From assembly GCA_028768545.1 (NCBI GenBank), contig CP054838.1, positions 632,727-696,726 on the forward strand: a stretch of 64,000 nt of DNA. The letters are read 5' to 3'. The DNA comes from Desulfobacter sp. (GTDB taxonomy: Bacteria > Desulfobacterota > Desulfobacteria > Desulfobacterales > Desulfobacteraceae). Positions 9,218-14,633 of this stretch are shown here, piece after piece. A model generated the notes under the pieces. That model was given only the letters and a program-made list of their open reading frames with translations, did no database searches and was not told the DNA's origin. Both the position numbers and the translations under genes were made by a program. The number at the start of each line of letters is the position of its first letter. Positions within the stretch are counted from its first letter, which is position 1.

Positions 9218-9316
9218 ACAAAATCTATAACGCGTTTGCGTAAATCTGATGAATATCTCATGGGGAAAATATAAGTTGTATAAATCCTTGTTCAAGTAAT
9301 TGTTTGCTCTGCTATA
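9218..9316 (-). mobile_element. IS630-family left-end stub
   Basis: Minus strand from 9261 reads MRYSSDLRKRVIDF, an IS630 HTH-type start. A TA dinucleotide lies at the junction with the flanking gene. Confidence 0.6.
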
Positions 9317-9995
9317 TGATATCCCGCTGGACCTTTTCATATTCCTCGTCTTCCACGCAGCCGTCAGGGAAGCGGCTTTTCAGGTTCACATAGATGAAGA
9401 GCAGGCGCTGGGGCAGGGCCTTGGACTCTTTGAAAATCGGTTTCCGGGTCCAGGTGATGCCTTCGGTTTCTTTCATGGCCTCGGGCATGAAATCAAAGTC
9501 GTCGGGCAGATCATTGGGATCCGCCGTGGTCAGGGTGGTGAGTCCGGCTTCGGTCAGGGCATCATAGGGGTCAAAGTGGGAGCCGTCAGGCACGGAGCCG
9601 TGGTCGGCGGCCACAATGGTGAAGACGTCGTCCCCAAGAACATCCATGATGGTCCCCAGGGTCTGGTCAGCTCCCATGTAAACGGCCTTGTGGAGTTCCT
9701 TGGCTTCTTCGTGGCGTTCCGGGCTGTCTGCCAGTTCCGGATCCAGCTGGGTGATCAGGTAATGGTAGATAAAGTCCGTGGGATGGGTGTGTAGATAGAA
9801 CACATCCCATTCATTTTCCATAAGCAGGGTCACGGCGGCATGGTTCAGCCATTTGTTGTGCATCTCGATGAGTTCTTTGAACATGGGTTCGTCAAACCAT
9901 TCCATGGATCTATGCTGGAATCCGCCCATGATCGTGGGGGTGGATTCCACTTCCATGAGCTTGGCAGCCTTTTCAGGAGGATGGCACCAGAGTTC
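9317..9995 (-). pseudogene. Internal fragment of an alkaline-phosphatase-superfamily (type I phosphodiesterase-like) gene
   Basis: WDVFYLHTHPTDFIYH, ADQTLG, VAADHG and FIYVNLKSR motifs; both ends missing. Confidence 0.7.
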
Positions 9996-10248
9996 CATTA
10001 AGGAAAAATTCCCGGAGGTCCACATTACCGGCGGACTGTCCAATATCTCCTACGGCCTTCCCCAGCGCCATATCATCAACCGGACCTTTGTGACGCTGAT
10101 GATGGCTGCGGGCATGGATTCAGCCATTATTGATCCGCTGGACAAAAAGATTATGGCCACAATTCGTACCGCAGACATGCTTTTGGGTCATGACCAATTT
10201 TGTATGGAATACCTCAAGGGCGTTCGTTCTGGTGCTATTGAAAGTTAA
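9996..10248 (+). pseudogene. C-terminal fragment of a pterin-binding methyltetrahydrofolate:corrinoid methyltransferase (AcsE-like)
   Basis: IKEKFPEVHITGGLSNISYGLP...INRTF...AAGMDSAIIDP. The 5' part is replaced by antisense phosphodiesterase sequence. Confidence 0.8.
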
Positions 10249-10267
10249 AAAATTACCCCTGTTAGAT

Positions 10268-10301
10268 CCCCCTGCTTCTAATCCTTGAGGCAGGGGTTTT
10301 T
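10268..10301 (+). terminator. Intrinsic terminator
   Basis: CCCCTGCTTC / GAGGCAGGGG stem followed by TTTTT. Confidence 0.55.
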
Positions 10302-10435
10302 GAACCCTATCGGAAATTGAATTTACCCCCCACAATCGGGCGACGATTTGTTATTTTTGATCCAATTTTCAGGCCATAACATATGCAGGGATAGTGGACG
10401 GGACTATAATCAACCGTATTGGAGATTCAACCCTC

Positions 10436-11479
10436 TTATTCGGGGTGACAGAGTTCGTCCCGGATAAAGGCGTTCATCTCATTAAAATTGATTTTGTCCA
10501 CCCGGGCCTTTCCCAAGGCCTGGAGAAAGACAAAAAAGAGGTCTTCCCCCTGCTTTTTTTTGTCCCTTGAGGCGGCCTGGATAATTTTTTGACTTGAAAA
10601 CGAGTGATTCACCGGGAGTTTCAGGCCCAGGAGCAACTCTTTTATCCGGTCCACCTCCTGGGGAAGGATATAGCCTTTTTGCTGTGAAAATTTGGATGCA
10701 GCCACCATGCCCATGGAAACCGCCCGCCCGTGGCCGGACTGGTCCAGTTTTTCCATGGCATGGCCGATGGTGTGGCCGAAGTTGAGCTTTCGCCGTTCTC
10801 CGGCTTCGTGTTCATCCTTTTGCACCACCCTGGATTTGATATCCACAGAGTCGGCCACCAGGCGGAAAATAACGTCCCGGTCCAGATCCAGGGCCTTTTG
10901 CTGGTTGGCCTCGATAAATTCCAAAAGTTTGATATCTTTTATCAGCCCGTGTTTAACCGCTTCAGCCAGGCCGTTGGAAATTTCAGATTTTGGCAGGGTG
11001 GCCAAAAGGTCAATATCGCAGATCACAAACTCAGGCTGGTTAAACAGCCCCACCATATTTTTAAAGGCATCCAGGTTTACCCCGTTTTTTCCCCCCACAC
11101 TGGCGTCCACCTGGGAGAGTAAAGAGGTGGAGACAAAGCCGAACTTTACCCCGCGCAGGAATATGGATGCGGCAAATCCTGTGATATCGCTGACAATCCC
11201 TCCCCCGATGCCAAGGATAAAGCTTGACCTGTCACAGCCCAGACGAACCAATTCCCTTAAAATGTACTCAATCGTGGCCAGGGTTTTAATTTTTTCTCCG
11301 GTGCCAATGGTGATCACAGGGCCTTTGGGAAATCGGCGGTTGTAAATTCTGAAAATATTTTCATCGGTGATGATTACCGGCGTATTTCCAGAGGGAATAT
11401 ACGCCGGTACCCGGGAGAGGGATTCCCCAACATGGATTCGGGAGAGGCCAAGTCGGCCCTGGACTTTGAATGTTTTCAT
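10436..11479 (-). CDS. aroB: 3-dehydroquinate synthase
   Basis: GIGGGIVSDITGF, QVDASVGGKNG and LNFGHTIGHA motifs. Confidence 0.95.
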   Translation of the reverse strand: MKTFKVQGRLGLSRIHVGESLSRVPAYIPSGNTPVIITDENIFRIYNRRFPKGPVITIGTGEKIKTLATIEYILRELVRLGCDRSSFILGIGGGIVSDITGFAASIFLRGVKFGFVSTSLLSQVDASVGGKNGVNLDAFKNMVGLFNQPEFVICDIDLLATLPKSEISNGLAEAVKHGLIKDIKLLEFIEANQQKALDLDRDVIFRLVADSVDIKSRVVQKDEHEAGERRKLNFGHTIGHAMEKLDQSGHGRAVSMGMVAASKFSQQKGYILPQEVDRIKELLLGLKLPVNHSFSSQKIIQAASRDKKKQGEDLFFVFLQALGKARVDKINFNEMNAFIRDELCHPE

Positions 11480-12489
11480 CAGGCGTCCTTGACGATTTTA
11501 TGGATGGCGTTCATTTTTTCCATGACCTGGGCAAACTGGTCGGGAAACAGGGACTGGGCACCGTCGCTCAGGGCTTCTGCCGGGTTGTTGTGAACCTCTA
11601 TCATTGCTCCGTCCGCGCCCAGAGCCGCAGAGGCATATGCCAGGGGCACCACCTGGTCCCTTACTCCTGCGGCATGGCTGGGGTCGACAATAATGGGCAA
11701 ATGGCTTTCTTTTTTGGCTGCAGGCACCACGGAAAGGTCTAGGGTGTTTCTGGAGTGGCGGACAAATGTTCTGACGCCTCGTTCGCAGAGGATTACATTG
11801 GTGTTTCCCTCTTCCATGATGTATTCGGCGGCCATGAGCCATTCTTGCAGCATGGCGGACATGCCCCGTTTCAGAATCACGGGTCGCTTGGATCTTCCGG
11901 CACGTCTGAGCAGGGAAAAGTTCTGCATGTTTCGGGTGCCGATCTGAACCACATCTGCATAGGCTTCCACAAGGTCGAAGTTTTCAACATCCATCACCTC
12001 TGTGACCACGGGCAGGCCGGTTTCCTTCCTGACTTTTGCCAGAAGTTTTAACCCCTCTTCCCCAAGGCCCTGGAATGAGTAGGGGGAGGTTCTGGGCTTG
12101 AATGCCCCGCCCCTGAATAATAGTGCGCCTGCCTGTTTAACGGAAAGGGCAATGGACAATACCTGGTTTTCAGTTTCAACGGCACAGGGACCGGCAATTA
12201 TAGGAAAACTGCCGTCTCCGAAAACGGCATCCCCAACCTTTACATGGGTGTTCTCCTGCTGGAACTCCCGGCTGACAAGTTTATAGGATTTTGTCACCGG
12301 AATGACCTCCTTTACACCGTTAAGCCCAAGGAAATGGGCAGCATCCACAGAGCCTTTGTTGTGAAGGACACCAATGGATACCCTGTCTCCTCCTGGTATG
12401 GGCCGGGCTTCGTAACCTCTTTTTTCAACGGCTTTAACAACAGCCTGAATTTGTGAGTCTGTTGAGCCTTTTTCCATTACAATTAACAT
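11479..12489 (-). CDS. aroF: DAHP synthase type I-beta with N-terminal regulatory domain
   Basis: IAGPCAVE, RGGAFKPRTSPYSFQG, QIGTRNMQNF, LCERG and DPSH motifs. Confidence 0.95.
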   Translation of the reverse strand: MLIVMEKGSTDSQIQAVVKAVEKRGYEARPIPGGDRVSIGVLHNKGSVDAAHFLGLNGVKEVIPVTKSYKLVSREFQQENTHVKVGDAVFGDGSFPIIAGPCAVETENQVLSIALSVKQAGALLFRGGAFKPRTSPYSFQGLGEEGLKLLAKVRKETGLPVVTEVMDVENFDLVEAYADVVQIGTRNMQNFSLLRRAGRSKRPVILKRGMSAMLQEWLMAAEYIMEEGNTNVILCERGVRTFVRHSRNTLDLSVVPAAKKESHLPIIVDPSHAAGVRDQVVPLAYASAALGADGAMIEVHNNPAEALSDGAQSLFPDQFAQVMEKMNAIHKIVKDA

Positions 12490-12536
12490 GTTTTTCCTCC
12501 GATTGGGTTTTATCAGTATTCATGGGTTTGGGCAAT

Positions 12537-12565
12537 AAAAAAGGCTGCAGCACCTGCTGCAGCCT
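12537..12565 (-). terminator. Attenuator terminator upstream of aroF
   Basis: AGGCTGCAGC-AGGT-GCTGCAGCCT perfect stem followed by a T run, about 50 nt before the aroF start. Confidence 0.8.
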
Positions 12566-12599
12566 GTATCCGTTTTTTCGGGATGATCTCAAACCCAGG

Positions 12600-12698
12600 T
12601 CACAGGTGCAGGCAAAGGCCTTGCCACCGGCACCAGAACACCTCTCCTTTAAGGGAGATATTAAAAAACGAGTTTGTTTCTGTATATAAGAACAACAT
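12600..12698 (-). CDS. Putative aromatic-amino-acid leader peptide (32 aa)
   Basis: MLFLYTETNSFFNISLKGEVFWCRWQGLCLHL*. Contains 4 Phe, 2 Trp and 1 Tyr and precedes alternative hairpins. TTGACA upstream. Confidence 0.65.
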   Translation of the reverse strand: MLFLYTETNSFFNISLKGEVFWCRWQGLCLHL

Positions 12699-12810
12699 AA
12701 TGTCCCTTTTACAAGGAGTTTCTGGTACTTGTCAAGGAAAATTCAAAATTTATATTTGATTTTCGTCTGTCTTCAAGATAGACTCTGACAAAATTTACAA
12801 ATAGGAGCCT

Positions 12811-13461
12811 ATGTCGTTAAAAGTCATTATAGCAGATGATCATGCCATTATCCGGGAGGGCCTTAAAAGCCTGCTGGAAAAAAAAGGAATCATGGTCATG
12901 GATATTGCCAAAAACGGAAGGGAGGCCGTTGAAAAGGCCATTGCCCTCAAGCCGGATATTATGATGATGGATATCTCCATGCCTGATTTGAACGGGATGG
13001 AGGCCACTGCCAGAATCCGCCAGGAGGTTCCCCATACCCGGGTGATTGCCCTTTCCATGCATTCGAGCAAAAGCATCATTGACAAGATGTTTGCCTCGGG
13101 TGCCTCGGGCTATATTTTAAAGGCCTCTGCCTTTGAGGAAATTTATGATGCCATCCAGGAGGTCATCCAGGGCCAGTTTTACCTGACCCCGTCCATTGCC
13201 CGGATGTATGTGGATGAGCATGGCCAGAAATGCCGCGACGGGCAGGCGCTTCCTAAGTTTAACAAAATATCAAAAAAAGAGCGGGAAATTCTTCAATTGG
13301 TGGCTGAAGGTAAAAAAACGAGGGATATTGCCCAAAAGCTTGGGGTAAGCGTAAAAACGGTTGAAACCCATAGGCGAAACATAATGAAAAAACTCAATAT
13401 TTTTTCAGTGGCCGGTTTGACCAAGTTTGCCATCCAGGAAGGGATTATATCTCTGGAATAA
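12811..13461 (+). CDS. NarL/LuxR-family response regulator
   Basis: REC domain (IADDH, MDISMP) and LuxR HTH (SVKTVETHRRNIMKKL). Confidence 0.95.
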   Translation: MSLKVIIADDHAIIREGLKSLLEKKGIMVMDIAKNGREAVEKAIALKPDIMMMDISMPDLNGMEATARIRQEVPHTRVIALSMHSSKSIIDKMFASGASGYILKASAFEEIYDAIQEVIQGQFYLTPSIARMYVDEHGQKCRDGQALPKFNKISKKEREILQLVAEGKKTRDIAQKLGVSVKTVETHRRNIMKKLNIFSVAGLTKFAIQEGIISLE

Positions 13462-13487
13462 ATGTTGTAAAAACCCAGGCAGGATAA

Positions 13488-14633
13488 ATGGAATATATTA
13501 AAGTCAAGGATGAGTCGAGCGATGCCGTAGAGGCTTTGGCAAATGGAATTGCCCATGACGTAAACAATCTGCTGGCGGCCATCAAGGGGCATGCCTCCCT
13601 GATGATGAGCAGTGTGAATTCTTCAGATCCATTGTACGGGCATATCACGGAAATACTGTCATGTATTGACAAAGGGTCTGAAATTGCAAATCAGCTGTTG
13701 GGGTTTGCCCAGGTGGATGCCTTTTACAGTACAAGTATTGATGCCAACCGCCTGGTCCGTTCTGCCGTGGAAAATCTGGATCTTAAAGGCAAACGGATTA
13801 TCCTTGATGTGGATTTGGCGGCCACCCCCCTGGTCATCAACGGAGATTCCGACAAGATTCATCAGGTGGTTTCAACCATTGTGGAAAATGCGCTCCAGGC
13901 CATGCCCAATGGGGGCAAATTATCCGTGCTCACGGAGTCCGCAGCCATTATGAATGGAACGGCAGAGGCCTATGGGCTGGAAACCGGGTTTTTCTGCAAG
14001 ATTACCATCACAGACACAGGGGTCGGCATGGACAATGCCACCCTGGGCAAAATTTTTAAACCCTTTTATTCTGCAAACCATAAAGAGTTTCCGGACAGAA
14101 AGGGCCTGGGCCTGACCTTTGCAAAAAAGATTGTCCAAAACCATAGCGGGGTGATTGACGTCTGGAGTTCTTCCAATGTGGGCTCTTCCTTTTCCATTAT
14201 TCTGCCCCTGGCCGAACCCGTTGAAAACCAAAACCTGCCTTCGGCCCAGGAAAAACTGGTGCTGGGCAATGAATCCATTCTTCTGGTGGATGATGAACAG
14301 CGGATCCTCACCGTTGGCAGAGAAATTTGTAAGGCCTTGGGTTACAAGGTGATCACGACAGATTCAGGGAAAGAAGCCTTAAAAATCTATGCTGAAAAAC
14401 AAGATCATATCAATATTGTTGTCCTGGATATGATCATGCCCGAGATGAACGGGCTTGAGACCTTTATTGCCTTGAAAAAAATGAATCCCGATATTAAGGT
14501 GCTCTTGTCCACAGGCTATGCCATTGATCAAAAGGCACAGGAAATGTTGCGCCAGGGGTGCAAAGGGTATATTCTCAAACCCTATTCCGTGATTGATTTT
14601 TCACATAAAATCAGGGAGATACTTGAATTATAG
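13488..14633 (+). CDS. Hybrid histidine kinase (HisKA-HATPase-REC) without an input domain
   Basis: GIAHDVNNLL H-box only about 20 aa after the start; DTGVGM and GLGL boxes; REC with LDMIMP. Confidence 0.9.
   Translation: MEYIKVKDESSDAVEALANGIAHDVNNLLAAIKGHASLMMSSVNSSDPLYGHITEILSCIDKGSEIANQLLGFAQVDAFYSTSIDANRLVRSAVENLDLKGKRIILDVDLAATPLVINGDSDKIHQVVSTIVENALQAMPNGGKLSVLTESAAIMNGTAEAYGLETGFFCKITITDTGVGMDNATLGKIFKPFYSANHKEFPDRKGLGLTFAKKIVQNHSGVIDVWSSSNVGSSFSIILPLAEPVENQNLPSAQEKLVLGNESILLVDDEQRILTVGREICKALGYKVITTDSGKEALKIYAEKQDHINIVVLDMIMPEMNGLETFIALKKMNPDIKVLLSTGYAIDQKAQEMLRQGCKGYILKPYSVIDFSHKIREILEL

Follow-up and report, generated by a model that had tools for sequence, protein, structure and literature searches.

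A predicted tryptophan-responsive leader-peptide attenuator upstream of the DAHP synthase operon aroF-aroB in Desulfobacter and its relatives

The window analysed in this study, a 64,000-nucleotide (nt) stretch of the Desulfobacter sp. contig CP054838.1, carries on its minus strand the operon aroF-aroB, which encodes a 3-deoxy-D-arabino-heptulosonate 7-phosphate (DAHP) synthase and a 3-dehydroquinate (DHQ) synthase. The region in front of aroF was concluded to be a ribosome-mediated (leader-peptide) transcription attenuator of aroF-aroB that responds mainly to charged tRNA-Trp, a reading to which we assign a probability of roughly 0.75; judged from its sequence, the attenuator is very probably real and functional. 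All elements of such an attenuator that a first-pass annotation of this DNA had proposed for aroF-aroB were recovered on the minus strand (Table 1), including an open reading frame (ORF) with cognate tryptophan (Trp) codons, a 1:2 hairpin that includes the regulatory codons and a terminator before the first gene. The upstream neighbour, a gene for a LuxR-type response regulator, is divergent (plus strand, start at 12811), so the 320-nt spacer must be a 5' region and not the end of a same-strand gene. The window alone is only suggestive, because ORFs with two Trp codons before terminator-like hairpins are common in the genome: a genome-wide scan for an ATG-initiated ORF, an amino-acid run and a terminator returned, by the dozen, short ORFs in which two Trp fall within a stretch of 6-7 residues. 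The decisive weight of evidence comes from the relatives and not from the window by itself.

The leader ORF of 32 residues that had been proposed earlier is present, and its UGA stop is separated from the terminator by a 34-nt spacer. Downstream of the sensor codons, segment 2 (CUGCACCUGU, 12611-12602) can pair with ACAGGCUGCAG (12567-12557) through 5 + 5 base pairs (bp) with one bulged C (CUGCA/UGCAG and CCUGU/ACAGG), exactly the 10-bp helix with the 5' arm of the terminator that the first-pass annotation had described, and the whole 2:3 structure has an energy of -19.6 kcal/mol (ViennaRNA). The perfect 10-bp terminator followed by a U run was likewise found as proposed, with an energy of -20.0 kcal/mol (ViennaRNA), and ends 54 nt before aroF. 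The 1:2 hairpin spans both UGG codons (-15.1 kcal/mol, RNAfold). Since GGUG occurs twice, two registers of this hairpin are possible; the one proposed earlier (GGUG/CACC + GCAA/UUGC) can form, but RNAfold favours the neighbouring register, one repeat away (GGUGC/GCACC + GGU/GCC). Compared with shuffled sequences, the fold of the 171-nt leader had a z score of -3.26 (0/200 shuffles as good) and the 2:3 duplex a z score of -1.84 (12/300 shuffles equal or better). An Rfam scan of positions 11500-13800 on both strands, with E values up to 10, detected no leader, T-box or riboswitch family and returned only chance matches of the eukaryotic snoRNA/miRNA type; the leader does not match the Rfam Trp_leader model (RF00513). 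Moreover, the leader element is single-copy in the genome and is restricted to the aroF locus.

Table 1. Coordinates in the window of the aroF-aroB operon and of the features of its leader.
Feature	Positions	Strand	Remarks
-35 hexamer TTGACA	12730..12735	minus	read from sequence
-10-like hexamer TAAAAG	12706..12711	minus	18-nt spacer from -35; 7 nt before leader ATG
Leader ORF MLFLYTETNSFFNISLKGEVFWCRWQGLCLHL	12600..12698	minus	32 codons + UGA (12602-12600); ATG at 12698
5' box TGTTCTTATATACAGAAACA	12675..12694	minus	20 nt, codons 2-8, about +1 to +24 of the predicted leader transcript; imperfect inverted repeat
Sensor codons UUC-UGG-UGC-CGG-UGG (F21 W22 C23 R24 W25)	12624..12638	minus	aligned with UGG-UGG(-UGG) of L002-L004
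Segment 1 GGUGCCGGUGGCAAGG	12619..12634	minus	5' strand of the 1:2 anti-antiterminator
Segment 2 GCCUGCACCUGU	12602..12613	minus	pairs with segment 1 or segment 3; last bases overlap the UGA stop
Segment 3 ACAGGCUGCAGC	12556..12567	minus	antiterminator 3' strand = terminator 5' arm
Intrinsic terminator AGGCUGCAGC-AGGU-GCUGCAGCCU + U6	12537..12565	minus	hairpin 12565-12542, 10 pairs (7 G-C), loop of 4
3' box TTGCCC-N17-(TGn)TAAAAC	12507..12535	minus	between terminator and aroF Shine-Dalgarno; resembles an extended -10 promoter
aroF Shine-Dalgarno GGAGG	12500-12496	minus	
aroF	11479..12489	minus	type Ibeta DAHP synthase; N-terminal ferredoxin-like regulatory domain; Pfam DAHP_synth_1 (8e-77) + DAHP_snth_FXD
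aroB	10436..11479	minus	3-dehydroquinate synthase; Pfam DHQ_synthase + DHQS_C

The promoter of the leader lies close to its ATG. The hexamer TTGACA is unvarying at the homologous site in L002-L004, L031-L038, L044, L046 and L050, the -10 counterparts in relatives are TATAAT, TAGAAA or TAAATA, and the -10 hexamer ends 8-12 nt before the ATG in the nine relatives that form a subgroup with the window; it is TATAAT in five members of this subgroup, the window and its nine relatives taken together. No Shine-Dalgarno sequence precedes the leader ATG in the window, and none is conserved in the nine relatives. The leader ORF would accordingly be leaderless or nearly so, from a transcription start that is itself predicted, and the suggestion of an almost leaderless ORF made in the first-pass annotation is consistent with the promoter-ATG spacing and the lack of a conserved Shine-Dalgarno. 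An internal GTG start at codon 20, behind an AAGGAG sequence, was considered and rejected; the AAGGAG is absent from L002-L004 and stands only 2 nt from the GTG.

In the mechanism that we infer, the start of transcription, ORF translation, the folding order and the response to amino acids are all predicted. Transcription would begin about 7 nt past TTGACA-18-TAAAAG, so that the first codon of the ORF would stand at the 5' end of the transcript or only a few bases from it. When Trp is ample, the ribosome would reach the UGA codon and occlude segment 2, the 3:4 terminator would form and transcription would stop 54 nt before aroF. When Trp-tRNA is scarce, the ribosome would stall at UGG22 or UGG25, plausibly also at UUC21, covering segment 1 and leaving segment 2 free to pair with segment 3 while segment 4 is still untranscribed, with the result that no terminator forms and aroF-aroB is transcribed. 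If the ribosome is absent or still far upstream, the 1:2 hairpin would form and lead to termination. When RNA that stops short of segment 4 was modelled with the ribosome on W22 or W25 and 13-16 nt downstream masked, the 2:3 helix formed (-17 to -23 kcal/mol); with the ribosome at the stop codon, segment 2 was masked and segment 3 was left unpaired.

The architecture is conserved in relatives. Three close aroF orthologues (L002-L004; 86-91% protein identity) retain the promoter, the opening 24 nt of the ORF, a Trp run, segment 2, the place of the stop codon and the terminator, and their homologous leader ORFs contain MMFLYTET...RRWWW, WQWWW and RRWW. In the aligned columns of these three loci, 6-9 of the 11 pairs of the 1:2 hairpin are kept (6-7 of 8 in the register of the first-pass annotation), as are 7-9 of the 10 aligned 2:3 pairs, with a register shift at the bulge. 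Among aroF orthologues of 65-71% identity the leaders seem unrelated, yet a short ORF with a Trp run followed by a terminator is again found, with runs such as FFRYWWW, SWCWWW, YWCCW, KWCWW, WRRWW, WQWRW, CWWW and IWCWWW; a Trp-run ORF and a terminator occur together in 12/14 aroF orthologues of the order. The wider leader family follows the pattern W-run ... UGCCGACCGGUUC ... GGACCGUGGGC. In the wider family AACCGG/CCGGTT is visible as a conserved candidate for the 1:2 pairing. Most relatives carry two tandem terminators, and the window and L002-L004 carry one. As a separate observation, L014 (G035) has its Trp leader (MIVTQSTIWCWWWQTRERGLHRPD) and tandem terminators about 330 nt farther from aroF than usual, in the stretch some 330-700 nt ahead of the gene, which suggests an insertion between attenuator and aroF at this locus.

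A wider sample of 87 aroF upstream regions, including 76 loci of public Desulfobacterales genomes and a few Acidobacteriota and other loci without a leader, was compared with dinucleotide shuffles and with the opposite strand, counting Trp within 6 residues of ATG-initiated ORFs of 8-80 amino acids (aa). At least three Trp in 6 residues were found at 41/87 loci (shuffles: mean 0.3, maximum 3; opposite strand: 2) and at least four at 14 loci (shuffle mean 0.0; opposite strand 1), so that a conserved leader ORF does exist in relatives; by this run measure Trp exceeds every other amino acid, and none comes near it. In the 42 loci that also passed the terminator filter, the stop codon lies mostly 25-44 nt before the terminator arm. 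In the relatives, 80% of the terminator-arm bases pair upstream when the ribosome is modelled at the last Trp, compared with 23% when it is modelled at the stop codon, and the upstream partner is nearly always found in the last 3-25 nt of the ORF; the duplex of ORF end and terminator arm has a mean z score of -1.05, with 40% of loci below -1.64. In a 25-sequence alignment (A2) the terminator covaries, with 6 pairs showing double changes and 0/500 shuffles reaching the observed score, and the antiterminator is paired in register in 78% of cells versus 31-54% in slid registers. These conserved Trp-run ORFs, together with the covarying terminator, the antiterminator partner located by ribosome-masked folding just before the stop and the conserved promoter close to the ATG, lend computational support to the earlier proposal of read-through upon stalling at F-W-x-x-W.

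The conserved signal, as read from these leaders, is Trp and not an even mixture of Phe, Trp and Tyr. The first-pass annotation had described a Phe/Trp/Tyr leader peptide; the Trp codons are indeed conserved and F21 fits a recurrent pattern, but F3, Y5, F11 and F12 are not conserved sensors. The FF at codons 11-12 is not conserved and is absent from L002 and L003, and the F and Y of MLFLYTET are not sensors; they lie within a 5' box conserved at the DNA/RNA level. In the three residues before the Trp run, Phe or Tyr accounts for 37/123 residues (30%) versus 92/1095 (8%) elsewhere (Fisher test, p about 1e-10, with phylogeny not corrected for); the motifs include YYFW, FRYW, VFFW, NFYW and GFW, to which the EVFW of the window may be compared. 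A ribosome stalled at F21 would occupy nearly the same position as one stalled at W22, which makes a degree of Phe response through F21 plausible in the model. A response of the window leader to Tyr is not plausible; no Tyr codon lies near its Trp block.

The conservation of MMFLYTET at the start of the close leaders is explained by the 5' box, which is conserved at the DNA/RNA level and not at the peptide level. This box occurs only once in the genome, yet 17 aroF loci conserve it, among them loci without ATG, Trp run or terminator; it may be an operator. The idea of a regulon-wide operator was rejected for this genome, as the box is unique in the genome even with up to 3 mismatches, and long-range pairing of the 5' box with the 3' box was also rejected, as duplex energies were no better than those of shuffles. 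The 3' box is conserved in L001-L004, in L031-L038 and in Desulfotignum-type loci without an attenuator, and on the strength of its promoter-like sequence it could be an internal promoter for basal aroF-aroB expression. At the Desulfotignum-type loci (L035, L039, L040 and L106; aroF 78-83% identity) the promoter and both boxes are kept, the ATG and the Trp run are lost and the terminator is gone or decayed. Moreover, the locus L134 of genome G014 (G014:C13:41300-44300, positions 300-1441) represents a natural deletion that lacks both aroF and the attenuator: the divergent response regulator and the promoter are the same as in the window, and after a relic of the 5' box comes aroB directly.

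Several observations weigh against the attenuator reading. Equilibrium folding of the full leader under a ribosome mask always favoured the terminator. In RNA ending before segment 4, the terminator arm paired upstream for nearly every ribosome position except the last 2-3 codons; such ribosome-masked folding does show how a ribosome at the stop codon alters the pairing, but it cannot separate early stalls from Trp stalls. Because equilibrium folding cannot rank stall sites, the switch depends on assumed co-transcriptional kinetics. The -10 hexamer TAAAAG is weak, has no T at position 6 and was not called by a promoter scan. The comparison of relatives for conserved aromatic codons and helix covariation, which had been suggested in the first-pass annotation, gave a divided result: the Trp runs are conserved and the terminator covaries, but the covariation of the antiterminator in the 25-sequence alignment equals the column-shuffle mean, because both strands are themselves conserved, and the antiterminator is conserved, not established by covariation. 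The Trp run of the window is eroded in comparison with its relatives, with two separated Trp codons and a change from UGG to CGG at codon 24, where CGG-UGG (R24 W25) aligns with UGG-UGG in L002, L003 and L004. The attenuator is also dispensable, since it has been lost in the Desulfotignum type and in G014. Finally, aroB is the sole DHQ synthase gene of the genome (a single PF01761 match), which fits poorly with control by Trp alone; some Trp-independent expression is needed, because aroB has no second copy to replace it, and basal read-through, Phe sensing at F21 and an internal promoter in the 3' box are the candidates for it.

With aroB as the only DHQ synthase, it would be physiologically sensible for the leader to answer all three aromatic amino acids, as it would if stalls at F3, Y5, F11, F12, F21, W22 and W25 all led to read-through. 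The enrichment of Phe and Tyr before the Trp run agrees with such an even three-way sensor, and a ribosome modelled at F12 also gave the 2:3 pairing in the minimum-energy fold of the shortened RNA. However, F3 and Y5 belong to a box that is conserved even where there is no ORF, segments 1 and 2 stay available for the 1:2 hairpin when the ribosome is at codons 3-12, FF 11-12 is missing from two of the three close relatives, no Tyr codon stands by the Trp block of the window, and the other DAHP synthase and pheA-aroE-aroA have dedicated Tyr/Phe leaders of their own. An even response to the three amino acids is therefore held to be unlikely, and a sensor mainly of charged tRNA-Trp is preferred.

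The erosion of codon 24 relative to L002-L004, the complete loss of the attenuator in related lineages and the conserved TTGCCC-N17-TGnTAAAAC box after the terminator would also suit a decaying relic, in which the terminator is mostly constitutive and partial and aroF-aroB is driven mainly by the downstream promoter-like box. This seems improbable: the window keeps an intact ORF, stop position, set of segments 1-4 and terminator, with perfect pairing, it has acquired at codon 22 a UGG not present in L002 or L004, and the trpL leader of E. coli likewise has just two Trp codons. It is very improbable that the ORF is untranslated, with its UGG repeats or hairpins read by a trans-acting factor (a TRAP-like protein or a small RNA), or that Trp acts on the nascent peptide in the manner of TnaC, even if the lack of a Shine-Dalgarno before the ATG could be taken in this sense. 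The Trp triplets always share a reading frame with an ATG and with a stop whose distance from the terminator is fixed, but the intervening codons vary (WCW, WRW, WQW); the UGG repeats are contiguous, unlike TRAP sites, which are spaced repeats; no Rfam family, T-box included, was matched; and TnaC logic, in which high Trp induces catabolism, is opposite in sign to what a biosynthetic operon needs.

The aroF leader is not the only aromatic leader of this genome. The genome-wide scan for ORFs, runs and terminators turned up a leader (MNNRKTDRFYFFGYYFYIHLPVLR, with FYFFGYYFY; terminator -21.5 kcal/mol) in front of a second DAHP synthase gene, of type Ialpha (347 aa; C1:4401408-4402451, plus strand; leader region and gene together C1:4401240-4402451). 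A type Ialpha DAHP synthase is encoded in all 24 other genomes of the genus, and among the type Ialpha upstream regions examined in them (L115-L133) an F/Y-rich leader ORF was found in 18 of 19, mostly of the form M..RKTD.FYFYFWYYFYTGLPVLR. In addition, the operon pheA (chorismate mutase-prephenate dehydratase)-aroE-aroA (C1:3182380-3179020, minus strand) is preceded by the leader MNFTENRYFYFCTPFKRGPACLW (YFYF) with a terminator of -15.6 kcal/mol, and trpEGDCF (C1:3600748-3605536, plus strand) by a 33-codon leader ORF with three spaced Trp (RWQKNWQAMPCWF; it starts MNFIGCKYHLRWQKNWQAMPCWF), followed by a hairpin and T9. The genes trpBA are separate from trpEGDCF and lie behind a GntR-like gene. 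In the relatives L015-L024, a fusion of type Ibeta DAHP synthase and prephenate dehydratase (about 620-630 aa) has a leader with a Phe run (FFFFFNFGRFFFF, MKMIETNNFFFFFNFGRFFFFRSVHPV), mixed with Tyr in some copies, and two tandem terminators; this Phe-run leader is probably the 'pheL' candidate of Desulfobacterium autotrophicum reported in PMC3082878. The fusion is absent from the genome of the window.

The genome is thus predicted to hold at least four aromatic leader attenuators, that of the window included, and the window element would be the Trp arm of an isozyme-specific attenuator set. The claim of the first-pass annotation that entry to the shikimate pathway is controlled here can be upheld in so far as the attenuator stands before a DAHP synthase gene, but this is not the sole gate, as the second DAHP synthase has a Tyr/Phe leader. 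A broader proposal, for and against which we see the case as evenly balanced, is that the Desulfobacteraceae run their whole aromatic regulon on leader peptides with isozyme-specific sensors. Taken jointly, and with the same even confidence, its parts would be a leaderless Trp-run leader on the type Ibeta enzyme and the sole DHQ synthase, a Tyr/Phe leader (FYFYFWYYFY) on the type Ialpha enzyme, a Phe-run leader on the fusion in relatives, and leaders on pheA-aroE-aroA and trpEGDCF. A second layer of control may act through the 5' box at +1 to +24, outliving the attenuator in some lineages. If this proposal were true, the AroH/AroG/AroF logic of E. coli would be reproduced wholly at the RNA level.

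Among known systems, trpL-trpEDCBA of E. coli (RF00513) resembles the window leader in its short ORF, in the Trp codons in segment 1, in the stop adjoining segment 2, in the exclusive hairpins 1:2, 2:3 and 3:4, the last being the terminator, and in a similar energy balance. There is, however, no homology of sequence or structure between them: the window leader has 32 codons rather than 14, is apparently leaderless where trpL has a Shine-Dalgarno start, has its Trp codons separated by two codons and controls the common-pathway genes aroF-aroB instead of the Trp branch. The first-pass annotation had named attenuation of this kind as known for terminal-branch operons, but not for a DAHP synthase/DHQ synthase operon in sulfate reducers; for DAHP synthase genes, precedents exist in aroR-aroF of Corynebacterium glutamicum and in the uORFC-13-1 motif of Acholeplasma. 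The former, a leader-peptide attenuator in front of a DAHP synthase operon that has been tested by experiment (Neshat et al. 2014, as given in PMC11802643; also PMC3890552), is the direct functional precedent for attenuation at this entry point of the shikimate pathway. A leader peptide precedes the operon as in the window, and stalling at aromatic codons raises transcription (PMC11802643). The sensor of AroR, Phe-Tyr-Phe, answers to Phe (PMC11802643), whereas that of the window family is a Trp run. The aroR-aroF system differs further in belonging to another phylum and in its unrelated sequence, and the window, whose leader is predicted from sequence, has aroB as the operon partner. The uORFC-13-1 motif, an upstream ORF (uORF) with Phe codons predicted by comparative genomics before aroF of Acholeplasma (PMC8632094), shares with the window a uORF with an intrinsic terminator, placed ahead of a DAHP synthase gene, but it has Phe codons and an unrelated sequence and is limited to Acholeplasma and environmental sequences (PMC8632094).

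Closer to the organism studied here, the pheL-type leaders show that the same clade uses aromatic-run leaders, there with a Phe run before the fusion gene in relatives; they differ from the window in leader and gene and are absent from its genome, and the window element is their Trp counterpart. In E. coli, the DAHP synthase gene aroH is under TrpR, and aroF and aroG are under TyrR (PMC5343134). Separate DAHP synthases answer there, as here, to different aromatic end products; E. coli uses DNA-binding repressors, whereas leader peptides apparently serve in the present case, of Trp type on the type Ibeta gene with aroB and of Tyr/Phe type on the type Ialpha gene. A literature search that covered few subscription journals found neither a Trp-run leader before aroF-aroB nor attenuation of aro genes in Desulfobacterales, and no regulator of aromatic amino-acid synthesis was found in the literature for these sulfate reducers; the study of delta-proteobacterial regulons by Rodionov et al. 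(2004) makes no mention of attenuators or aromatic genes. The mechanism is of the textbook kind; its place here is apparently unreported.

As for the surroundings of the leader, the start of aroB overlaps the stop of aroF, and the stretch 3' of aroB (9300-10436 in the window) contains only overlapping ORFs on both strands, one of 243 aa on the minus strand and one of 131 aa on the plus strand. A Pfam scan of the ORFs at 9300-10436 gave no match; the 131-aa plus-strand frame resembles, by eye, the end of a pterin-binding methyltransferase, and the stretch may consist of gene remnants.

In conclusion, the gain from the predicted attenuator is one of coverage and detail and not of principle, since precedents for DAHP synthase genes exist. 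For the annotation of these genomes, it suggests the rule that a mini-ORF with a Trp, Phe or Tyr/Phe run followed by a terminator be looked for before aro, phe and trp genes. The leaders of the two DAHP synthase genes indicate that isozyme-specific feedback on DAHP synthase can be built of leader peptides alone, and the attenuator of aroF-aroB would provide, for a large group of sulfate reducers from marine and sediment habitats, a mechanism by which entry into the shikimate pathway is regulated.

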